Positions 48,068 to 64,000 are shown, counted from the first letter of the stretch. The stretch: 64,000 nucleotides of DNA from Ascidiella aspersa (GCA_963924565.1 OZ004607.1:11532001-11596000), one strand, 5' to 3'. Made by a program: numbers and translations. Notes: a model not told the origin generated them from the letters alone.

Positions 48068-51000
48068 TTATGTTTTTTTCGCTTTTTTCTTAGGCGGGGC
48101 TTTGCCCTTTGCGGCTGCGCTTGTTTCTTTCGTCTTTTTGGTGGCTGCTTCACTGGCCGCCTTCGGCTGGTTCTTCTTTGGTTTGGCTTCCGCCGCTTCT
48201 TTCTTTTTCGCCTTTGCTGGTGAACGTGCAGCTGTAAAAGTGATTTTAGCGCCCATTCAAAAATCATAACAAAAACCAAACTAAAAAGCAGCAAGACCGC
48301 GGTTTATTTCGCTAGAGTAGGACTATGGTTTGGAGTACGGCTACGCGAAACTAGTCCCGAGTCCCCCGACGTGCGCATGCGCAGTTTCAAATTCGAAAAA
48401 TATAAGGCTAAAAACTGCTCAACTTGCTGTAAATTGTAAAGGTGGTATAGTCATTATTGGTGTAACATATTTACTACTTATTGCGGGTATAGGTGAACTA
48501 GCTACTTGTTGTGGGTAGGCGAGTTGCATGACACCCCCATGAGTGGATTGCTGTATATATCCACCCTATTTTGGTTACTTAAATGGGTAGATCCAGGCTG
48601 TATAGTCAGTGCCAAACTCGGAACTTTGACTTTATGTTTTCCCACGGGGACGCCTCGGGTGTTGGGTGGTTTCTAACCGACTCCGCAGCCATGGATAGCT
48701 GGCCCTTGTGTAACAATAGTCACGTCACTTGCACTTGCAAAGTACATGTTTTATGGACACAAACATCTGCGTTAAAAACGTAGACAAATACATGGACATC
48801 TGTATTTAATATTCTGAAAGACGCTTAGGTTTACATAACGGGTTTTGCAACATCTACTATAAAAATAAAACATCAAAATTTTAGTTCATAATTCAATAAA
48901 TGAGTTAAACCTGTTGGAGATTTTTTGATGGCTTTTGTTTGTTTGACTGCTTTCTTGGTTGTGGCAGTCTGAAAAAAAAAAACAATTACTGTTTAAATAT
49001 TGTAGTCGAGGATTTGGTGGTCTACATGAGAAAATAATTTTGCTGTTATCATATTGAGGTTTTATAACTTAAAAAAATGTTACTGTTTAACTAGTCTAAC
49101 ACAACGAAGTCCAGTCCCATTTTGAGCATATACTAGAAAATTCATAATTAACATTGTGGAATTTAAGGTAAGCTGAACAACTTCTTGGAAACATGTTTGC
49201 GTCCATGTCTTTTTCAATTCTACAATGTTGAAAAAGTGTAGGTGTTGTGGCCCGTATAGTACAGGGGTCGGCAACCTTTTTATAGTCGCGGGACAAAACC
49301 AAACTCGGAAAGGTCTCTGCGGGCCGCACAAAATGATAACTAAGAATTGTGTTGTTAAAATGTTAGAACTACTGTGAATCAGGCGGGCCTAGGATATTTT
49401 TGCAATTAAAATGTGTTTAATTACTTTTAAGGAGGCAGTAAAATGTTGGCGCAGAGCAATAAAAGCGTTTGTTTGTTTTAAAATTAGAGTTCACACGTCG
49501 TCATCCATACTACTAATGAAAAGTGTAATAAAACTACTTTGAGGGAACACGATAACATTTAAAGTTAATCTAGTTCAGTGTTTGTTAACCTTTGAACTGA
49601 GGGCACACCTGGCGAGCGAAGCGAGCACGATTTTTCTTTAGTTTACCGGCATTACTTTTAAAGTTTACCGGCATTACTTTAAGCCGTTTACCGGCATTAC
49701 TTTTAAAAGTTTTTATTACATTGCCGAAAAAAAAATGTTAAAAAATATATGTTCAATATTTTGAATACGTTTTTGTCCGCGACGCACTTGGCTGCCTTCC
49801 ACGGCGCAACGGTTAAGAAGCGCTGATCTTAGGTGAAAACACAGCATCAAACGTAAACAAAGCGGACGTAAAATGATGATTCGCGCAAAGTGCGAAAATT
49901 TTTTGCAATTACCAAGTTAAAATAGTCAAAATGTACAGTATGTTAAATGTACAGTATGTTAAATGGACTCGTGTGTAATTTGTCAAAGAGGCGGCGGGCT
50001 GGATGTATTACATCAGCGGGCCGTACGTTGCCGACCCCTGGTATAGTGTGTCGCCATACCAATAAAATTAGCTAACGACTAAAACACGTTACTAATATCG
50101 TTCAACAACCATAGTTTTAACGTTAAGTAAAGTAAGTATACAAAAAAAGTTTGAAATCAACCCAACTGACTGATCATGGATCGATAAGGACAAAATATTA
50201 AACTGCGCAACAAGGTAATAATTCTAAGCGCGTGATCAAATCATGTGTTGCGACGCCAAGTTTTTTTTATGATCAGGGGTTAAATCTGACTGTTCACTTG
50301 CCTAATAGTCGAAAGCAGTTTATTTAACACTTTCTTCGCAAAAATTAACAACAAAGATATTAATCGGACGAAAAGTTCAGTTCAGAAGCGCACGTCTAAG
50401 TCAACGTAAAAAGCGTACCTTTGCGGTTTTTGCTTTGGCAGTTACAGTTTTGACAGCTTTCGCTCCGGTCGCTGATTTGACTTTCTTTCCAACTGCAGGC
50501 GACATACCCAGCGACATTCGCGCTTGCTTCACCTTGTCCTGAGCCAGCTGCAAAAAGTTAACAAAAAATAAGGCCAAAGATTAAGTGCTTTCATTTCAAA
50601 ACAGGAAGCTGGTCTATTACTTAAAAACTTAGTTCTTACCTTTACAGAATAGGGTTTCTCCTTCAGGCTTTTCAGCTTGTCGCTGTCTACCTTGGCAGCT
50701 GTTTTCTTCGCAGCAGCCTTGGCCTTGGCACTTTTGTCGCTGGTCTTTTTCTTGACTTTGGTTTTTAACTTTTTCTGCTGCTTCAGCCATTGTTGGTTGA
50801 GTTTGAAGCGTCCCTGCAGGCCTGGTGGAATTAGGATGATGTCAGCGTAACATATACAAAACAACTCATGAATATAATTTAAACAGTAAACTCTTTAGTC
50901 TTAACATAGTTACAAATGTACAAATCAACTCTAAAAATAAAAAAAAATAATTTTAACTTAGATATTTTGCATTTTTACGTCATAATAACCAGGCATAAAG

Positions 51001-54000
51001 CATTTCGTTACAACGTTCAGAAAAAATTTAACCTAAAATAGACAGCAAAAGAGAAAAATTTGTAATGACAAGTAGGCCTACATTAACTGCACTTTAACAA
51101 ATCGGTTCTAAAAACCGTGGTTAAACCAATAAACCATGCTGAAAAGCTTTCTGCTGAACTCCTGTAATCCAATAAAAATGCTGCAGCATTTGTTAACTAT
51201 TTAGCTTCTTAATGTTTGTGGGATTTAGAGTTTGGAAATCATCGAAAAACCTTGAATTACCAACCCAGACAATAATACTTAAAACGACGCAGCAGAGTTT
51301 CGCATAAAATTAGCAAATAATTAAATGTATGACCATTTTGTAAGGATTACACTTTGTAAGCATTTTGTATGGATTAAAGTCGTGTTTGTGACCCTCGCGA
51401 TGAAAAGGTTCGCCATCCCTGACTTAGGCCCATCATATTTTCATTCCTAGCATATTTATCGAAATAGTAATTGGTATTATTGCAAATCACCACCAAAAAA
51501 GACACAACTGAACAAATAATGTTCAGTACTATTGTCTAAATGAGAGATATATATTATACAACTATTTCGAGCAAAAACGCAGTTCGAGCTGAACCTATAT
51601 TGCGATCATCTGTAAACTTTGATTATATTTTAACTGAACAAAAATTTCAAAATATCACTGCAGATTTTGTTAATTTTGTAAACAGTGTTTTTGCCTTTTG
51701 TAATAGGTTGGCTATTTTTTTACCTAACGTGTAAATTAAAAACAAATTATAGGCTAGTTATAACTAAGTTTTTTTATCTTTTTTTATCACGGTAGTCAAA
51801 ATCAGGAGCGGTTCTAGTATTTTCTTTGGAGGGGCGATGAAACAAAATAAAAAATTACGTTACAAATTTACGTCCTTACGTTACGTAATAAAATTGATCT
51901 CACAAAGTTGCATCTAAACGTGACGCCATCAAAAAGTGATCTTAAGAACAATACACCGTTAGTTTATTTTGTTAAAGATTTAGGTTGAAATGCTTCACAC
52001 CTGAATCCTGACCATAATATAATAGGGCGGGTCAAACCGTTAACAAGGAATCCCTTCTAATATTGGTTTATAGTCATATTTGAATTATTCAAAAACTCAA
52101 AACATTTTTAAATTGACCAGGTTTTGTATTTTTAAGTTCACTAGCTTTCGCACGACCGTGCTTCATCAGGTCAGAGTAAGAATAAAAAGCGCACAGAGTA
52201 AAAGGCGATAAAACGTATAGAGTAAAATAGTAACTCGCTGATACGAGGGCCAACGCAAGAGTATGCGAAGCATCGCGTAACTGTTGATTGCAAATATTAA
52301 ATTGGGTAATGTGCAATGAAACCAACATCAACGTAATTTTACTTTTTTAACGCGATGAAGCACGGTTGTGTGAAATTTCGTCAATCTAAAAATGAAATTT
52401 GCCAACAGTGCCACTTGTGTCCTTTTTTGTAATTTGCCTTAAGCGCCGATTTTGGTATAACTATAGGTAGCTTAGTTTATTACAGTTATTGCAAATTAAC
52501 AAATTTTGTCCTGTTCAACGAAGAAAACATTAGGGTAGTAGTTGTACTTATTTTCAACACTGTAAGCTTTGAAAATTAGGTGTCCGTTTAGGGATGCAGA
52601 AAGTCAATTAACTATTTCTGTAGCATTTGCTTCAAGCTTTTTCGATTACAATAAGATCAAAAGACTAAAATATACGTTTGGTTACCGACACTCTCTTTGG
52701 CTCCAGCCTTGGGCTTAGGTCGAATAAGCATTCCACACTCAATCCCCTTGGCCATTTGCGTTTTAAAATTTCGCTTGATAACTGCCTGCAAAAACAGTAG
52801 GATTAGGATAGAGCAGTTATTTGTACTCACAACTAATAACATAGGTCAGGGGTTGTCAAACTTTTTGAACCAAGGCTATGTTTGAAAAAATATTTGATTT
52901 TCATTAAATTTAGCTCATCCAACCAATTCCGATATCGTCATTTGTGGATCGCGGAAAATGACAATGCGTTCAAATTTCTGGCTTAAGTTTAACCCCTTTT
53001 TTGTTAAGTTAGTGAAGAGTGGTAGGTTATGTGTGTTTGTACTTCCTTGCGTTAAATGTGAATGTAATTGGTACGTCACTATGGTGTGTAATTGGTCCAG
53101 AGGTTAATTGCTTGGGTTTTAACTAGTATAGGAGTTGTCTGTGTCGCAGACTAGTACGGACCACAATACCCAAACTAATGTTTCACTTTACTTTCTCGAG
53201 CAAGAAAACTTTCGTGAAACTGTGATCGTTTACAAGAAGAACAACAGTCAGTAAGACAAAGACACGTGCACACTAAGTGGTCACATTAAGCTATAACTTG
53301 TCTCTAATCATGAGATTGTAAGCTTCGCTCAAGATGAGTCCGATCCGCTCGGTCTCCTTCCGACGAATGCCGAGACTGCAATACAAAATAGCCAAAATCG
53401 CACACTTGCAGCGCCGATTGAGTTGGCGGGTGGACTGAAACAGCGGTTTCTCGGCCAAACGCGCCATAGTTTGGCACAAAATAAATACATTCAGAATGTG
53501 TGTTTCCATAGTAGTCTAGTAGTAGAAGATATTATTTTTTGCAGTGTTTGCAATCAACTCAAGACCTGTCTGTATGAGCAATGAGCCTACATTAAGTCCT
53601 ATTTTTAATTGCACATTCGCGCGAGATTTGACTAGCAACAAAGGGCTCTAAAGTTATAAGTTTGGTGACGTGATGCTATGCCCTATTTTTGTGACGTTAA
53701 TCTTAAATGGCCACAAAAAATGCTGGATCTGGTAACTACTATTTGGAAGTGTCCCGACTTAATCCCCAAAAGTGTAGAAACCCTAACTATTAGACAAAAA
53801 TGGAGTGGTATTAACTAATGGGGTGGTATTAACTAGTCGCGGGCCAAAACCAAAGTCAGAAAGGTCTCTGCGGGCCGCACAAAATGATTAAGAATTGTGT
53901 TATTAGCATTTCAGCAACTGTGAATCAGGCAGGCCTGGGATCGTTTTTGCAATTAAAAACGTATTTATTTAAAACGCAAAGCGAGAAAAAAGGCGTTTGT

Positions 54001-57000
54001 TTGGTTAAAAAGTCGAGTTCGCACGTCGTCATCCATAGCCTACTACTAATGAAAAGTGTAATAAAACTACTTTGGGGGACGCGATAAAATTTAAAGTTTT
54101 TTAAGTCAAGGCACAACTAGCGAGCGAAGCTAGCGCGATTTTTTTTTGGTAAACCGGCATTTCTTTTAAATTCTTGCAAGTTTTTATTAAATTGCTGAAA
54201 ATAGAAAATTATACGTTTTCCGTTTTTCCGCAACGCACTTTGGCAGGCTGTCCATCGCGCAACGGTAAAGAAGTGCTGATCTAGTTGAAAAGACAGCATC
54301 AAAACGTCAACAAACGGGATGTAGAAAGATCATTCGGGCGCAGCGTGAAATATCTTCGCACTTCTATAGTTAAAATAGTCAAAAAAGTATGTAAAATAGC
54401 TTCTAATTTGTCAAAGAGGTGGCGGGCCGAATGAATTACATCGATCCGGCCCGCGGACCGTAGGTTGCCGAGCCCTGCTATACACGTGCGGTATAATATA
54501 GAAATTTACAATAATACTTTAGTTGCTAAATCCGCGTGTTATAAGGCCGCAGCATTTAAACATAACAAAACTACATATTTTTAGAAAAAAACAATTATAA
54601 ACTAATCGGTAGATTTAGTTATTATTAATAACTTATTAATAATAATTTCACACTGTTTTCAAAACATCTGCATCAGGCGACATAAAAGTCTTATTTTGCA
54701 AAATTGTATTATATTTTTATGCATGCGATGACTTTTAATTTGTTTTTATGGTCACGTTGAAAGTGAAAATTGCTTACTGTTAAAACCGCTGCAATAAATG
54801 AGATATTTGGCGTACTTTGCTTAAAATTTTGCGTGATTAATAAACATACTGCAAGAAGTCATTCAGCATAAAAGTCTTAATATCGCAACATTACATTTTT
54901 GTTTTTTACCAAGGCCATGAAGGATGAACCTAATTTTTTGATTTTACGGTCACGCAGATTATTGCGCTAATGGTGTTTGAAAAAAGTTTTGAACTAGGAG
55001 GTTTTGAGTTGTTGAGCCAGAAGTTTTTGAGAAAATGCCCCTCAGGCACTTACAAAAAGGAAAAGTCGCGCCCTCGCTGTGGGCCCAGTGTGACGCCGCT
55101 GCTCCTATTGTTCGGCAAGCGCTTTACTCAAGTTCCGAGGTATGCCCACACCACTGCAGGAAGCCAGAAGCGAACATCCTGACTTATGTACTAACACCGT
55201 AACTGGTAGCAATCCTCATTTATATTTTTTATAGTGATAAAGATTGAATAAAGCTTGGGTCGGAGCCCTAAACCACAGCAGCAACGAACAAAATCGTTAA
55301 TGGACATTTGGCAAGAGTTTGGTTTGGTCAGCGACTGCATGGCAAAAGGTTGTAGAAGTTATATGGCATATTTAATATTGTAAGTAAAAATCGCTTGTGT
55401 AAGACATTTATGTGTTTATGTGCATGTTATCATGATCCAGATTTGTTTGTGAAGCTTTCTTAGAATATTGACAGTAATGCCGGTAAAGTTTCTGATGTTG
55501 AAAATTGATTTTGACCAGTTGTGGTAAGAGCATAGAATGAGACTTGAGTGCCAAATTATTTCCAAAAAAAAGACATATCAGCATATCAGCATGATCTAAG
55601 AGCATGATCTATCAGCATGATCTAAGAGTTGCAATGTCAAGTTTTGCAGTGCAGCAAAGCATATTGTATTTTTAGAATTTTTATAAACAATTCATATGAA
55701 GGACAAGAGTCATTTCAATTTCATTGCAAGATGCAATACAAATTGATTGAACAAATGTTTGGTACAAACTTTAACTATAAATTTTTAGACTGCTTGAAAC
55801 ATGACACAACATTGTTTCCAGAAATACCTTATTAGCTAATACAATACCTTTCAAGCAAAATTCCCATAAAACAGCTACACTACTTTACGGATGGTGCAGC
55901 ATTACAAATGCAAATATAAAATAATTCATTGATTTAAATCAGTGTTTCCCAACATGGGCAAATGTATTGAAACTTAATTTAAGTTATTTGTTTTATGGCA
56001 TAATTTTTCAACGATATGTTTTAAAGTTATTTTGCCACCTCCCAATCTAGCATCTTAAATTAATTACCAGGTTTGTTGCAACAGGGGGGCATTACAAGAA
56101 TCTGACAAGCCCAAAAAGTGCTATTACAAAAAAGAAACACTGATTTCAATTATCATAGGAAAGATATTCAATTTGATGTAGTTTTCAACTTATTTGCTGC
56201 AACTTATGCAAAGAGACCATGCATTTGGCTGGGTAGCGGCAGCTTACAGATGTCCTATGAGCAGCAAATTATAAATTAAAGCAAATTCTGTGTGAATTTG
56301 TAAAAGCACACATTCACCAACTGTCATTTTCTCATGGTAAATAAGCATTCCTTTTTAAGTAAAAATCAAAAAAAAAAAGCGAACTTGTATCTTACTTAAC
56401 TTGTTCACAAAAAAATTCTTGTTAAGATATAGCTAGATATTTAACAGTAGACTTTGCTAACAAATGGTTGGCATTTGTTATACATTCCGACTATTAAACA
56501 TATGACGTCAAAGTAATGTTTTTGCATCCTAGTGGTCTATTTGCTTCTCCATTAACTGGAGATTCTTTACGATTACAAATGCAATCATTTTACAATGTGT
56601 CAATCCTAAACCTGCAACTGGCAGAATATACATTTTAACCCAGAAATGACAATAGCAAGCAACAGTAGCCCTTTTGAAGTTAAAAAAAATAATTTAAGAA
56701 AAATACATTTAATATACACCATTCCGTTTTTATTGTTTTCAGTTGTATATTGCATATTTTTAGTGCCACATTTGCTACTGTATTATATGTGTGAACTGAA
56801 AATGTGGCAAAATAAATGGGGATGAGTCTTTGTATGATATAGTTCAAGCAATATAGCAAACTATACCAAGCATAAAATATTACTATTGCCACAGAAACTG
56901 TCCTTAAATTTTCTCCATAATTTTGCCACTTCGCTCTTTGGTGTTATGCTTTATGGTATATTTAACATTTTGTTCAAATTAGTGTTTTCTGGGCTTAATA

Positions 57001-60000
57001 TATATTTTCGTTATGAGCCCTAAAAGTGTTAAATGTTGTATATTTGGTTGCAATTAAAACATTTTTAGTGTACCTCTGTAAGTAACAGCCAAAATCAGTT
57101 GCCCAACTTTAACAAAATTTGAAAATAGAGTTGGTGTTTGGGCTTTAATAAGTGTACCAATCCCTCGCGATTAAGTTGTATCACCACCCCATCAATTGTT
57201 AGGTTTATAACAATTGATACATTGATATTTACATTGGTTTCTTTTGATTTTAACTTTTAAACTGTGTATGATACTATACGTTTTGTTTCAAAACCAACCA
57301 CTATTTGTTAATAGAAATGCCACGGAAAAAACATTCTACCCCTTCTACTACACCTGCTGCAAAACGCATGAGGGCTTTAAGGGCGGCAGAATCTGAAGAG
57401 CAGCGGCGAAATCGGTTGCAAGCGTATGCAGCACGTAAAATACTGGAGACACCAGACGAGCGTAAGAATAGGCTTCAACAAGAATGCGCAAGACGAGCAA
57501 TGCGAAAACAACGGGAGACATCAGAGGAACGTAAGGCCAGGCTTCAACGAGATGCCACAACGCGAGCAATGCGAATAAAACTAGAGACACCAGAAGCACG
57601 TAAGGCCCGGCTTCAACGAGACGCCGCAATGCGAGCAATGCGAAGACAACTGAAGACACCAGAAGAGCGTACGGCCAGGCTTCAAAAAGATGCCGAAACG
57701 CGAGCAATGCGAATAAAACTGGAGACACCAGAAGAACGCAAGGCCCGGCTTCAACGAGATGTCTTAACCCGAGCTATGCGAAGACAACTAAAGACACAAC
57801 AGGAGCGCACGGCCCGGCTTCGAAAAGATGCGGCAACGCGAGCAATCCGAACACAACTGGAGACACCAGAAGAACGTAAGGCCCGGCTTCAACGAGATGC
57901 CGCAACCCGATCAAGGCAAAGGCATATGAAGACACGGGAGGATCTTTGGGCTCGGCTTCGACACAGAGCTGCCCAAATGAGCGCGATGGTGTAACATTGC
58001 GAAGGTTAAATAAAATATTTGCAAGTGTAATACGGATATTGCCAGTGTTAAACTTGTTCACGACTACCGGCGTTGTCGTGGCGATGTAAATTTATTACCA
58101 CTGCTTAAGGGCGAGAATTTGCGCAATCTACCGAATTTTCCGTGGTAAAGCAGATAATAAAATCATACTACTATCACTGAATGACATTATAAAGCAAAAT
58201 ACACAGTAATTTCCACGACAAGAACTTAGAGGTCTGAATAAGAACCTGTCGGAATAAGTCCTGAATTCTGCGGAATAAGGCCTAAATAACGCCTGAAACT
58301 GTAGGTATTAGAGGGTACTGGACGATGGGGGGCCATGGGTCTGGCATAGGCCGTTTCGGTGTCGACGTTTGGACGCCCTGGTTTAAATGGCGCCTTTGGG
58401 ACGCCGCTGTTTTGGCACCGGATTTTTTTATCCTGTTATGCGTCCTTGTTGGGTAATGGTTGTGGTTAGAAAATTGGTTAGAATTGAAATTATTAGGGAA
58501 GTTTGTTATGTACTTAGGGGTGGGGTTTGGGGTTAGGTAAATTGTTGTATAGGCCTCATTCTGGCCATTAATGTTACGACTATTGGATATTCGTCCTAAT
58601 TTGGTTCAATTGTAAAATGTTTTATTCCGACGTTGATTTTGGTCTTATATCGGCCCTATGGCTGGATTGTGCTGTGTATCGCTATTGTATGTTACGTTTT
58701 ATATTGCCGTGCAAATTTGGCAACCTTGCGTTATAACCGATAATTCTAAAAAAATAATATGGTAATGGTAATTTGAATGGAACCAACAGGCAACAAGATC
58801 CGTTACGGATAGCGTACAATGTACATCTTCATGCATTAGAAGGCTAAATTATTCATTAAATGTTGTTTAAAATGCAATACCATTTTTATTTATGCCAAAA
58901 CGATGTAAAGCGGGGCGTTACACGTTTGGTAATAGAAGTTAAATAACATTAACTTTTCCGGTGATCAATAAGCATTGTTAAACTGCAAAGACGCTGGTAT
59001 TGATTAATCCTTCCCTAGTCCCAACCCCACATATGAGTAACACCTTTTAAGTAAGCGGCATTTATTCGACTTAAAATGTAATAAAATTTATTTACTGTGC
59101 TCGTTGTATGCAATTATCCCATTTTCTATTTCGATAATGAGGACTTTGTTATTCTTCTACAATTATTTTTACCTTGAATGTCAGCTAAACTGTTTTATTA
59201 CACCATTTTCTAAAATAACAAGCGTCCTGTTTTTCTTTGGTCTTTTTGATATGACTTGTATATCAACGAAACATTTTTAGGAATTTGCTGAAATCCGAAA
59301 CAATAACTGATTCGTATTCAACCGGTCGTTAGATGCAGTTCTAATACAGTACTTCATAAAATGCGTTGTTTAAATTAATATATTTTAATAAGTCAAATAT
59401 TTGACTAAAATATTTTTTTAGATCAAGGTGAATATTTCAAAGTTTTCAAGTGAAAAAAAAATAATCGCTCTATTAATAACGCACCTTTTTAGCTTGTTGC
59501 GTTACACATTACTGCATGGCATCAAGTTATGCAGTCTAAGACCACAAACTATTTACTGGATTCGTGTGAATCAATGCAGCAATTGATACATTTCTAATAT
59601 TATTTCGTTTGTAAATGCCAAGTGTAATGCCCGAATAAAACCGAACCTAGGAGGACAAAAGTGTCTTTATACATTCATTTAATATTAGAGCTTTACCAAC
59701 ACACAATTACCGAACAAGACTTTCGAGAATGAGATTATAAAGGGCCACTGAGCTTTCAAGTTCGACTTGCATAAATTGAAAAACACGAAAAGTCTGCTAA
59801 AAACCAAGTACAAAGTCACTTACATCTGAAAGCAAGTAGTTGGCGATCAGGTAGGTTTTGATGGCCTGAGCCGCTGCTCCTTTTTTATCGGCAATGTTGG
59901 TGATCGCGTCTTGAATCATTTCGAGGAAGGGCGGGCGTTTTTTTGTCCCAGCAGCCGCTTTGTTAGAGACAGCACCTTTTCCGGTAGGTGGCGCTTGGTG

Positions 60001-61855
60001 TTGGTCGTTTTTGGTCTCCTCGTCGCTTAAGTGAAGTTACAAAGGCAAATTACAGTGTAACGATTTGTTGGTTGACTGGCATTTTCTGCGAAGATTTCGC
60101 TCCAACCGATATTTCGGCATCGGTAAATTTCAGCAGATATTTTAAAGTAGTGTTCTTGAAAACATATATTTTATAGAAGTGTTTTATCGCCAGTAAAAAA
60201 CATCTACTTTTATTAAAAAAAAACGAAAGTAATGCAGTGTTTTTCTTGAATAGGAAGCAGTTGTGTATGTTACAATCTGTATTATACAAGTAATAAATAC
60301 TCAATATTCATATTGAATAGGTTTGTAAAAAATCCTTATCGGCCAACGGCAGCGTTTTAAACTAGCCATTTTAAAATAAAAATGACGAAAATAGCAAGAC
60401 CCAGTCCAAGTCATCAGTTACCCAATTTTAGTACTAATACCAAAATAAAACGTTAAACCGTTAAAATCGGTAAACTCGTCTGATTTGGAGCAATAAGTCA
60501 AAACGAATAGAAAAAATGCTACAACATGTAGGCCTAGCAGTCGGATCGTTTTACTGTTAACAAATGAGCTAGATAGCTCAATTTTATAACAAAATGTTAA
60601 ATAAAATAACTTAATTTCAACCCAAGTAATTTTACTCAACGCCTTAAATCCAATTCAAGTCCATTTTTAAAAGACTCAAGTCAATCTTTTTACCAAAACG
60701 ACTTAGGTTAAGTCAAGTCATTTAAAAACAGTGACTTCGTCACAACACTGGGTAACAGTAGGCAACGAAACAAAATATAGGATATAGGTATTGGTACGAA
60801 AATTGAAATTGGTTAAATTACATAAGCAAGATTGATGATAGTCCTTGTTGCTGCAGTACACAGTTTAAATTTATACACGACTAAGCTTTTCAGTATTTAA
60901 TACAATTTAAAAACAATTATATGTGCACAAACTGTTCTAATGTTGGCAAAAAAAAAATGCCCACAAAGGCACCTGCAAGAAGGCCTAGCGTTAGGAGGTT
61001 GATTGACAAGTCATTTTGCCCGGGAATATACTGTAATAGTTCCTGACTGTTAAGTACGATCCGTTTATAAGACATAAACGTGTTTTCCATTGGCGCTTTT
61101 TGATTCGTTAAGTCGGCTCTGACTTGATATTTCATTACTGTACATACACTATTATATTAAATTCCGTATGTCATGTTTGTTGTGCGCTCAATGCATCACG
61201 CTTATTTGTAATTTACTTTTTGTTAATTTAAATAAAAATTGCATTTTTGTTATATAAAATGTAGCGCTTGCAACATCTGATCCTGGCACATTAACGCAAT
61301 GGATAACGTACTCGATTGTAAGTCTATAGATTTTGTGGACGGTACTCTCAAAAAAACTTTTGTTAGTTAACAACGCAATTTGTGTACGTGGCTCAATTAG
61401 TAAATTTCGTACATAAAATACCGAAAAGGGTTATGCTGTGAGGGGGGCCAAATACATTCACCTTCGAATGCGAACTGTTAGGTTTACATAACGCTAGTGC
61501 ACCTTGGAATGTGTACCGAACCGTTTTTTACAAGAAAAGCAAGGCGCCTTGAACTAGTCGCATGGAAAATACCTGCATTTAGTTTTTCCTGTACGGGTTT
61601 TTTTTCACCACACTTTAAATCGTGAGATAAATAATTTTTGTTTTATTTAAACATTAGCCCACTGGCTGGAAAAGTAGGGGAGGGGGTAATTTGCACAAGT
61701 GTTACAACTCACAAAGTTACAGCCCTGGCTAACACTAACCTTTCACCGCCTTCTTCGAATTGCAGTTTCAGAGGCGTTGCTTCCATTTCGCTTTCATTTT
61801 CGGTTCCACTCCCTTCCTCAGCACTACTCCCCGACTTGGTGTAGGTGTCATTCAT
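48068..61855 (-). CDS. Intron-containing oocyte/cleavage-stage type linker histone H1 (B4/H1M/H1.8-like)
   Basis: Phase-consistent exons: 61855-61740, 60025-59824, 52785-52686, 50821-50640, 50547-50419, 48968-48911, 48231-48068. Acidic N-terminus; H15 domain RPPFLEMIQDAITNIADKKGAAAQAIKTYLIANY...GIECGMLIRP...GLQGRFKLN; Lys/Ala-rich tail with SP motifs. Confidence 0.88.
48480..48715 (-). mobile_element. Possible degenerate tRNA-derived SINE in the last H1 intron
   Basis: A GC-richer island whose minus strand begins with an A-box-like TGGCTGCGGAGTCGGTTAG; no clean B box. Confidence 0.25.
49262..50040. mobile_element. Full-length non-autonomous hAT element (family A)
   Basis: TIRs CAGGGGTCGGCAAC ... 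GTTGCCGACCCCTG; TSD GTATAGTA / GTATAGTG; internal GTTTACCGGCATTACTTT x3. Confidence 0.9.
52141..52390. ncRNA. Head-to-head pair of minimal hammerhead ribozyme relics (Penelope-like inverted ends)
   Basis: Minus strand 52175-52136: TGAC-CTGATGA-AGCACGGTCGTGC-GAAA-GCTA-GTGA. Plus strand 52351-52386: CGATGA-AGCACGGTTGTGT-GAAA-TTTC-GTCAA. Confidence 0.6.
53837..54477. mobile_element. hAT family A copy with the left TIR lost
   Basis: Colinear with 49285-50040; right TIR GGTTGCCGAGCCCTG. Confidence 0.85.
55640..56260 (+). pseudogene. Decayed DNA transposase (Sola-like DDD motifs), interrupted by a MITE
   Basis: Frameshifted peptides FLDCLKHDTTLF, IKQLHYFTDGAALQ..YK and FNLFAATYAKRPCIWLGS resemble the recalled SDCLKHD / FSDGAASQYKN / FFATSHGKGPCDGIGG motifs of invertebrate transposases. 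Confidence 0.55.
55940..56142. mobile_element. Small hAT-like MITE inserted in the decayed transposase
   Basis: CAGTGTTTC ... GAAACACTG; TSD ATTTAAAT / ATTTCAAT. Confidence 0.65.
57317..57994 (+). CDS. Nested antisense gene: 225-aa basic protein made of ~9 STPR-like 23-aa repeats
   Basis: Intact ORF starting MPRKKHS..., with repeats ET(P/S)EERKARLQRDAxxRAMRxxL (69-bp unit). A splice-acceptor-like TTAATAG lies 2 nt before the ATG, and AATAAA lies ~15 nt after the stop. Confidence 0.75.
   Translation: MPRKKHSTPSTTPAAKRMRALRAAESEEQRRNRLQAYAARKILETPDERKNRLQQECARRAMRKQRETSEERKARLQRDATTRAMRIKLETPEARKARLQRDAAMRAMRRQLKTPEERTARLQKDAETRAMRIKLETPEERKARLQRDVLTRAMRRQLKTQQERTARLRKDAATRAIRTQLETPEERKARLQRDAATRSRQRHMKTREDLWARLRHRAAQMSAMV
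58345..58560. repeat. Interspersed repeat remnant with GGCGCC-type subterminal repeats and GGTTAG-like microsatellite
   Basis: CCGTTTCGGTGTCG/TTTGGACGCC/TTTGGCACCG repeats followed by GGTTAG...TTAGGGG...GGGGTTAGG. Confidence 0.4.
60395..60750. mobile_element. hAT-like remnant with GACTxxAGTC motifs
   Basis: Repeated CCAAGTC/GACTCAAGTC/GTTAAGTCAAGTC motifs, ending in CACAACACTG. Confidence 0.45.
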
Positions 61856-64000
61856 GTTTCTGTTCTAACGACTTAAACAGCAGGCGGGCTCATGTCTTTT
61901 GTTACCACAAGTCTTTAGAAAACGGAACACGTGCAATAAAGTATGTGTTGCTGTCATTAAGTTTACAAACTTGAATGTGTAAAAGATGTGTATCTAAACT
62001 AACAACTACAGGTTAACAAAGAATTGCGTTTGTATAGGATTTTTACAATTTTACAAGTGAAGTGTATGGCTGAAAATAGCAATTGATTTACTAGTTTTCT
62101 CCTCTAATAACCTCTGTTTACATGGGTTCAGCGGAATGAGCTATCTTAAATGTATAACTACAAGCAATCGACAAATGGCAAAATAAAAGGGTTTTCGCAA
62201 CCAACCAAACAGTGTAGCCATACGGACAAATGCAATAATGTTCTGAAATAACGTGGTACTGTCATGCTCCACAAGCTATCAAAAGTTCAAACCGCAAACC
62301 GACAAAAACGTGTTTTGACAACTTTGTTTCCTAACTGAGGGAGAAAAACGCAAAACGCAGCCTCGCTTGCCCAAAAGACACGAAATGCTGGCTCAAAGTT
62401 CAGTCATATGCCTTTAGCACCGACGCCGTCTCTCAAGCGTAGCAGTTAATCAACGCCGGCCTTGTCTGTCCCGTGTGTTACATAACAATCAGTTTTATTT
62501 CGAAGGGCGCAAAGCACGTTGTGTGATGTGGTACTAGTTTGGTGTGGATTTGTATATAATATTTTAGGTTGTTATTAACGTTTGTGTTTCAGTCAACGGA
62601 AGCAGCGATGAGCGCCTACGCAAGACTGTAAGTAGTGTGCACTTAATGTTTATTTTCATTAAAAATTACTCAGTTACATGCTACTGCGCTATTGTTTTTT
62701 AAACCCCTAATCGAGGTCAAATAACATAAATCAACTCTTATAGTATATACTTCCGCAAGAAAAGGACAGTTTGCTTCAGTTAGCACTACAAACAATCCGT
62801 TACATAATAGTCTCGGTGCGGCGTATAGCGTTGTGCGGTTGTATAGTACTGGTATTAGCATATCGCGTATCCAGTCAGCTGACGGCCAGGTAACTGAGTT
62901 ACGTAACATGTATCCTTTGGTTTAGTAAAGCATTGAACTGCTACAAGCTAGAAATCTTCGCGTTGCCGATTTGTGCATGTCTAAAAACACTAAAGTGTTT
63001 AAACACCAATTTTCGTATGTTTGTTTAAAAGTTTGATAGATGCATATCGTTTATTGCGTCTATATTTGTTATGTAACGAAACCTGTTGGCACTGGTTGTA
63101 AACTTTTGTGTATCAGTCGCATATAGGCCTATACTGGGACTTGTGCTAAACATTAAGCAAGGAAAATTGCGGATATATCAGTGGTATTCAAACTATGCAA
63201 ATTTCTTATAATAATTGGCAAAGTTTACACCCCGGTCTATTGCCGTCTTTTGAGAGAAAGTCGCGTATCTCAAGCGAGCGCCGTCGCAAACCGGTCACGG
63301 GTAAGCAATTTTTATTTATAAGTTTTTTTTTATATATGACGCAGTTTATTTTCGGCATTATTTGGTTGAATATCACGCAAGTCTAAACAATTACTGTTAC
63401 ATCTTAAAGCTTTACGTTTGTTAGTAATTCTGGACCGATAAATGTCACGGATTTTCGTCACTTAAAACTTTTATGGCACGCTTAACACGCTGTAATATGC
63501 AATAGTGATCAGGAGCCCACATCGTAATAAAATATTTTTTGTATAGACCTAACCACCCAAAATTTACATAGATTTCACAAACTATAACGTTTTTGTCGTT
63601 GTAATTGGTTTACATAGACGGAAAAAACGCCAACAATCCTTTACCAGGTAGAATTAAACGTATTTGCGGCATTTAAAAAAATTTAAACGGGATTATTTTT
63701 ACGTTGGATGCTGTCGATAATAGTAATTCATAGCACGCCAGTCGATTCAATGTAGCTTTAACACAGTTTTTTGAAATGTTTTTTGTGGGAAAGTATTAAG
63801 GTTAACCCGCAGACACAATCAGGGGCAAACAGTCAAATGACGACCGGCACCACAGTGACGAACTATAGGCTACGGTACACAGTCAAGGGACGACCAATAG
63901 GCTATACAAACACGCAAAAAATACATCACATATGTATATATTTATGGTTACAGACTACAGTGTGACGACGTAAAATTTAGACAGGGTTCTCAAAATGTCG

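Follow-up and report, generated by a model that had tools for sequence, protein, structure and literature searches.

A linker-histone gene with an STPR reading frame in its second intron

The window analyzed here is a stretch of 64,000 nucleotides from Ascidiella aspersa. On its minus strand lies a linker-histone H1 gene, and within intron 2 of that gene (59823-52787, ~7 kb) we find, in antisense orientation, an open reading frame (ORF) built of STPR repeats. The nested arrangement had been proposed in an earlier note on this DNA, and the minus-strand gene recognized by Pfam Linker_histone (matching exon 2) bears it out. The seven exons of the host gene, which were joined by their GT/AG sites and frame rather than by reads, form one frame of 951 coding bases. 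The features of the locus are as follows.

48068-61855, minus strand: linker-histone H1 host gene, likely of the B4/H1.8 type; the inferred splicing gives 316 aa
61855-61740, 60025-59824, 52785-52686, 50821-50640, 50547-50419, 48968-48911 and 48231-48068, minus strand: H1 exons, with putative joins
54908-57312, plus strand: region upstream of the ORF with weak transcription and 52 ATGs; an intron, a leader that is discarded or a long 5' UTR
55435-57159, plus strand: decayed transposase-like relic, unrelated to Helitron, 65-76% identical to other copies
57274-57316, plus strand: stretch resembling an acceptor, with a terminal AG (57313-57314) two bases 5' of the ATG; common to the C6 and C4 copies
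57317-57994, plus strand: STPR-only ORF of 225 aa, pI 11.7, by homology the 5' part of a Helitron RepHel gene
57317-57388, plus strand: basic leader (aa 1-24) that begins MPRKK and aligns colinearly with the Helitron leaders
57389-57445, plus strand: first unit (aa 25-43), shortened to 19 aa, common to the Helitron family
57446-57928, plus strand: seven exact 23-aa STPR units, W1-W7, in which T2, R6, R9, L10 and R17 are invariant
57929-57994, plus strand: tail unit of 21 aa followed by the stop; homologous to the last Helitron unit, and the point where Helitron homology ends
57995-59419, plus strand: transcribed 3' region with AATAAA at 58009, 58156 and 59080; depth peaks at 58718-59068
58146-58666, no strand assigned: old dispersed repeat within the 3' region, with many other copies at 72-82% identity

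The ORF, which contains no internal stop, is one of two stop-free frames of at least 200 codons in the whole window. In Pfam, STPRs (PF21107) is the only family to pass its cut-off in the ORF, scoring 45.5 bits where 27 are required (E = 1e-11). Translation and the HMM match thus confirm what had been read from the sequence, namely about nine tandem units, seven of them exactly 23 aa, with no domain besides STPR; the acceptor AG said to stand just before the ATG is likewise present. Each unit carries a net charge of +3 to +5. Among W1-W7, T2 and R9 occur in all seven units and E1 in five, with K at position 1 of W4 and W6, and the units differ from one another at 10-21 of 69 nt without any stop or indel. 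A 46-aa higher-order pairing of units had also been claimed, and it proves real but modest: over 57442-57942, Tandem Repeats Finder reports periods of 138 bp (3.6 copies, score 650) and 69 bp (7.2 copies, score 566). Of the 10 distinct ways to divide W2-W7 into three and three, the odd/even one fits best (2/20 when counted both ways); W2 is a mosaic unit.

B4/H1.8 genes are multi-exon, with introns within the globular domain. The seven-exon host gene has this multi-exon layout, and the eight other H1 loci inspected, of 15, are all uninterrupted in one frame across the match. The best PDB match of exon 2 is Protein B4, a weak one (E = 0.24), and a database search with exon 2 returned 80 candidates, none of which was scored; the accessible part of a paper on Oikopleura histones holds nothing on oocyte H1 in tunicates (PMC3156773). 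The host is likely an oocyte-type H1. A germline role of the STPR ORF would follow solely from this likely type of its host gene, and the position of the ORF inside H1 is probably incidental.

Other elements surround the host gene. A short first exon on the plus strand, at ~62578-62628, faces its start head to head across ~720 bp (within 61855-62630), and the two may share a promoter. A very abundant repeat, whose ends look like those of a cut-and-paste miniature element, occupies H1 introns at 53833-54485 and 49270-50040; at 53833-54485, the summed contig depth in X1 exceeds 50,000. Elsewhere in the genome, H1-like genes at C1:14486946, C2:36889556 and C2:36891711 have very Arg/Lys-rich tails, which we take to resemble sperm protamine-like proteins.

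Helitron relatives of the reading frame

We searched the genome (308.6 Mb in 75 contigs) with the ORF protein and obtained 13 further matches at seven arrays, copy counts from such searches being lower bounds; the best other protein matches are 39-58% identical to the window ORF. Six other STPR places are related to it at the DNA level. At four of the six (C7:17391196, C7:17398958, C6:18218657 and C7:15582721), the array runs on into Helitron_like_N and/or PIF1, and all four are broken. At one of them, STPRs and Helitron_like_N lie in a single 653-aa frame. The C6:13279204 copy is cut after the STPR array and keeps an intact frame of 211 aa, and the C4 copy is a broken relic with deletions, frameshifts and a stop. 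The window ORF and the Helitron family have the leader, the shortened first unit and the last unit in common at 70-80% DNA identity. The alignment with young copies is gapless from the ATG, and the acceptor region 57274-57316 is common to the window, C6 and C4 copies. Helitron homology of the window is limited to 57274-57963. By this homology, the ORF represents, on its own, the 5' end of the RepHel gene of the Helitrons in this genome, so that its MPRKK-type start and acceptor are inheritances from the element and not host innovations.

The Helitron link drawn in the earlier note thus holds, in that four decayed Helitrons carry the same leader and array ahead of Rep/helicase. Its remark that the ORF has about twice the usual repeat number does not, because copies of the Helitron family here have from 7 to >24 units. 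A range of 5-7 is given in the part of PMC4856987 that was available, and 11/156 other proteins have at least six units in register by a conservative pattern. Given both the family copies and these proteins, nine units are not special.

Neither the enzyme nor the element ends are recognizable at the locus. Elements of the HLE1 type start with TC and sit between A and T. No Rep or helicase remnant was found in the window plus 10 kb (best tblastn E = 0.52), nor any colinear Helitron 5' family sequence upstream of 57274, the 5' end of the family not being fixable from its decayed copies. Exact copies of the hairpin-CTAG 3' end of the family occur 328 times in the genome (control, 0), which might suggest that a non-autonomous Helitron, still mobile, carries the ORF as a passenger. 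Several results make this extremely improbable. The window holds five matches to that 3' end at 3 mismatches against 3.4 expected, none of them near the ORF; the flanks match unrelated repeats only; read depth in X1 is ~50 across the ORF and equal to that of the flanks, as for a single copy; and the locus is present in runs of three further samples. The several dispersed, near-identical copies typical of a non-autonomous Helitron were not seen for the window ORF. Lacking a 3' end above chance and having single-copy depth, the mobile passenger is largely refuted. Many near-identical, untranscribed copies had been named in advance as the outcome that would speak against a domesticated gene; the ORF is instead single copy and transcribed. 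In being single copy, having an intact frame and having lost the element ends, it resembles domesticated transposon genes.

Several observations on repeats were made along the way. Six of the 328 Helitron 3'-end loci, when compared, revealed no single shared non-autonomous element; they share little upstream, which suggests short or heterogeneous non-autonomous elements. Two decayed Helitron copies at C7:17389800-17400300 are 95-98% alike over long stretches and lie tail to tail. In the copy at C7:15582717-15584712, the STPR array has grown to >24 units with frameshifts and appears minisatellite-like. The 5' region of one Helitron copy is cut by a decayed insertion (C6:18218939-18224013), which from its motifs is presumably retrotransposon-like. 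The relic at 55435-57159 matches no Pfam family above cut-off and has better-preserved copies on C7, C2 and C9.

The seventh of the arrays is an older STPR-only frame, at C6:13277368-13278120 (minus strand), with nine exact 23-aa units, the same leader and 40% identity to the window protein. Its GC3 is 0.67 versus 0.33 in the Helitron; it has no ATG before the repeats, and a search for orthologues found none. This frame, which is probably a host exon that is spliced and has been kept for a long time, offers a stronger case for domestication than the window ORF. It suggests earlier retention of the same STPR module. The intact young C6 copy (C6:13278572-13279255, minus strand) is situated ~450 bp upstream of it on the same strand; the adjacency of the two frames looks non-random, and they may be spliced together.

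Transcription and signs of retention

Transcription was assessed in one RNA run (X4; 7.8 million records, ~6% of the run), with read numbers estimated from bin depths. The ORF received ~13 strand-specific reads (2.4 per kb per million), the unique single-copy bin 58718-59068 received 17 (6.3 per kb per million) and the region upstream of the ORF received 10 (0.6 per kb per million). Reads in bins 55559-59419 are almost all first-mate-minus, whereas those on H1 exons 1-2 (~4 reads) are first-mate-plus; the ORF strand is therefore transcribed independently of H1. The RNA runs past the AATAAA at 58009 and peaks ahead of the one at 59080. Thus, the polyA signal previously noted after the stop does exist, but because reads continue to ~59.4 kb it is probably not the main site.

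The 5' end of the transcript is less sharply defined. A contig of X3 begins exactly at 57313, hinting at use of the acceptor, and X3 coverage extends over 54908-59643 with none over H1 exons 1-3; this RNA-like pattern is a hint only, X3 being assumed to be RNA by pattern. Among the 15 listed of 49 read joints, none falls at 57315, and depth falls from 1.8 in the bin just upstream of the ORF to 0.78 in its first bin. If unspliced, RNA of the ORF would carry the 52 upstream ATGs.

The evidence on whether the ORF has been retained by selection points both ways. Over its first 228 bases, it is 19-23% different from five young copies, and its branch carries 19 private sites of 201 versus 21 in the C4 relic, which is broken while the window ORF is intact. 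Between 4.6 and 8.2% of point changes in the ORF would create a stop, and the probability of finding no stop after 60-100 neutral changes is 0.06-0.0002 with indels uncounted, a figure that assumes a branch spent as a fixed insertion and applies to a copy selected for its intactness. Some of the divergence may have arisen in an active-element phase, which weakens the argument from age. The units of the window ORF group together in a clade of their own (support, 0.94). Eight scaffold positions (1, 2, 5, 6, 9, 10, 16 and 20), as named in the available portion of PMC4856987, hold 5/33 amino-acid variants in the ORF against 11.1-13.4 expected (p = 0.015-0.002), variants being counted per column and hence lower bounds. 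In decaying Helitron inner units, no such sparing is seen (9/26 against 8.8-10.8 expected). A smaller set of five scaffold positions gives p = 0.003 but was partly picked post hoc; without CpG weighting, the phosphate-contact positions taken by themselves reach p = 0.07-0.08; and five invariant columns, as seen in W1-W7, are reached by 73% of simulations. The sparing of the scaffold could itself date from the active-element phase.

Substitution ratios are close to neutrality. Against the five young copies, dN/dS over codons 2-66 is 0.60-0.96, with all intervals including 1, and among the units of the ORF it is 0.73-1.16. Private synonymous and nonsynonymous sites number 7:12 in the window and 6:15 in the C4 relic (Fisher p = 0.74). 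Among the 40 listed of 105 variant rows, 5/6 allelic changes in the ORF are nonsynonymous; T8S and K50R are conservative, and S69P yields the residue usual in the units. Contigs from X2 (57351-58007) and X3 (57532-58303) each show six substitutions and no gaps, so the frame is open in other individuals. Protein, representative-library and metagenome searches found no orthologue of the ORF. On balance, the evidence tilts slightly toward retention. The proposal of a domesticated modular DNA-binding protein thus stands as far as a single, intact, transcribed copy that has lost its element ends is concerned; overall dN/dS of 0.6-1.16 does not indicate purifying selection.

We put at about even odds the reading that the ORF, which is transcribed from its own strand, is a young, co-opted STPR-only gene; the basic protein that it encodes is predicted to form tandem helices tracking the major groove. 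A well-preserved relic is nearly as likely. According to this somewhat less probable account, the ORF is nonfunctional although transcribed, a shortened copy left by an older Helitron subfamily; its heterogeneous array came from the active element, no stop or frameshift has struck it so far, and its RNA is leaky or noncoding. It would account for dN/dS near 1 in most comparisons and for the excess of nonsynonymous allelic changes. The whole architecture is inherited from the element, the repeat region is also open in 3/6 related copies, reads are few with no listed joint at 57315, and the scaffold sparing could stem from the active-element phase. Yet close sister copies, such as recent activity of the subfamily should have left, are absent; the equally diverged C4 relic is broken; and survival without a stop is unlikely if the branch was mostly neutral. 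The RNA, moreover, is strand specific and denser over the ORF and 3' region than upstream.

It is improbable that the ORF is instead one exon of a longer plus-strand protein, spliced at 57315 to an upstream coding exon. Donor-like sites do occur at 55139, 55379 and 57077, and with two bases between AG and ATG, an upstream exon of phase 1 would be in frame with the ORF; the older C6 frame, without an ATG before its repeats, seems to need such an exon. However, plus-strand RNA is absent from 52400-53803, X3 contigs run unbroken across 55139, and no plus-strand stop-to-stop frame in 50000-57271 exceeds 95 aa.

Predicted DNA binding and comparison with known STPR systems

An AlphaFold2 single-sequence model (mean pLDDT, 87.5; pTM, 0.31) places helices at residues 46-66, 69-89, 92-112 and 115-135, that is, 21-residue helices with 2-residue breaks, the break being absent at W6. 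At this pTM, the overall shape of the model is not determined, and the lack of any Foldseek match in the PDB at E = 0.001 is expected. The only PDB sequence match is FMBP-1 (5d23; E = 4.9e-8). According to PMC4856987, STPR domains conserve Glu1, Thr/Ser2 and Arg9, each BmSTPR unit spans 4 bp, and DNA shape dominates the readout, with positions 14 and 16 making base contacts. By analogy, the ORF protein is predicted to lie along the DNA major groove. When aligned to 5d23, the ORF lacks the residues of an FMBP-1-type AT reader (M13, S14, Y16, A17 and L21). Because these methyl-pocket residues are replaced, its binding preference would differ from that of FMBP-1.

Variation had been said to concentrate at the residues after RD/KD (positions 14-16), and these had been proposed as repeat-variable specificity residues. 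Neither claim is borne out by closer analysis, and a TALE-like programmable reader with its specificity at these positions appears very unlikely. Positions 14-16 do hold 9/33 variants (nominal p = 0.02), and 14 and 16 are the base-contact positions of BmSTPR. But some three-residue window reaches nine in 33% of simulations (post hoc p = 0.33), 24/33 variants lie elsewhere, and the full methyl-pocket set is not enriched (9/33 against 7.1 expected). Position 15, the most variable, is absent from the listed BmSTPR contacts; W6 is polymorphic at 14-16, its other allele being equal to W4; and BmSTPR reads mainly shape.

For the co-opted gene, we envisage the following course. The repeat-coding front of a Helitron transposase gene has stayed by itself in H1 intron 2, with Rep, helicase and element ends gone, and its own strand is transcribed. 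After splicing at 57315, it would be translated from the ATG, and the basic leader could carry the protein into the nucleus. There, by analogy with BmSTPR, the protein may cover ~28-36 bp, at 4 bp per unit, through a conserved scaffold (R6, R9, L10 and R20), presumably reading DNA by shape rather than by a code and with a preference unlike that of FMBP-1. Its role would most likely be that of a weakly constrained binder of chromatin or transposon DNA.

If functional, the ORF represents domestication caught early: one genome contains the source family, a broken relic that is equally old and a further, older frame of STPRs only, so that the path from a transposase arm to a host DNA-binding protein is traceable. 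It also bears on the direction in which STPRs have passed between hosts and Helitrons, which the available text of the HELIANO study reads as capture (PMC11417382). If a relic, it is an ordinary Helitron stub. A bolder and rather unlikely idea is that this lineage tamed the Helitron STPR arm at least twice, in the old C6 frame and in the H1-nested gene, that STPR-only proteins outcompete the transposase for germ-line Helitron DNA, and that we see here a snapshot of how FMBP-1 and ZNF821 arose from Helitrons and were not captured by them.

Searches for other STPR proteins place the ORF in a diverse family. A protein search with it gave 4 matches among 7997 scored candidates, three of them lepidopteran (222, 218 and 209 aa), and no orthologue. 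A representative library yielded 162 matches, the best 150 of which are 21-54% identical to the ORF, apart from one 57-aa fragment at 70% (P0019, Logan); a metagenome scan gave 330 pattern matches, none confirmed. By Pfam, with six long proteins left out, STPRs is found in 125/144 library matches, DUF6570 in 9 and Helitron_like_N in 3. A Helitron-type cysteine motif is present in 13 of the 150, and 3 of these 13 have an MPRKK-like start. One library protein (P0158, Logan; 283 aa, 3 members) has STPR repeats fused to a CDK2AP domain, possibly another host fusion. In the literature searched, which left most subscription journals outside, no title or abstract opening reports a Helitron as the source of a host STPR gene.

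The ORF can be compared with three known kinds of system. Like the FMBP-1 STPR domain (PDB 5d23; PMC4856987, in the part available), it has basic 23-aa units in register with a T2/R6/R9/L10/R20 scaffold, and it is predicted by the model to share the 21-residue helices and 2-residue linkers. It differs from FMBP-1 in having nine units instead of four and no other domain, in the replacement of E1 by K in two units, and in its methyl pocket, where M13 is replaced by D, S14 mostly by A, Y16 mostly by T, A17 by R and L21 by I, R, T or K.

The second comparison is with Helitrons. In HLE1 elements, as far as the accessible text of the HELIANO study goes, STPRs occur in ORFs separate from RepHel and are read as captured domains (PMC11417382), whereas in this genome one copy has STPRs and Helitron_like_N in the single frame noted above. 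The ORF resembles the HLE1 STPR-Helitron family here in its homologous leader, acceptor, shortened first unit, array and last unit, but it is without the cysteine motif, Rep, PIF1 helicase and hairpin-CTAG end. The Helraiser transposase needs its N-terminal region to bind DNA, according to the part of PMC4778049 that was available, and for that reason an STPR-only product could compete for Helitron DNA. By this analogy, such competition could occur here, although the units of the ORF have diverged from those of the family.

Host genes built from transposase DNA-binding domains are known, namely those of the THAP, BED and CENP-B types. Like them, the ORF is single copy and transcribed, keeps the DNA-binding part and has dropped the catalytic part; unlike them, it is young, and its source family is still in the genome.
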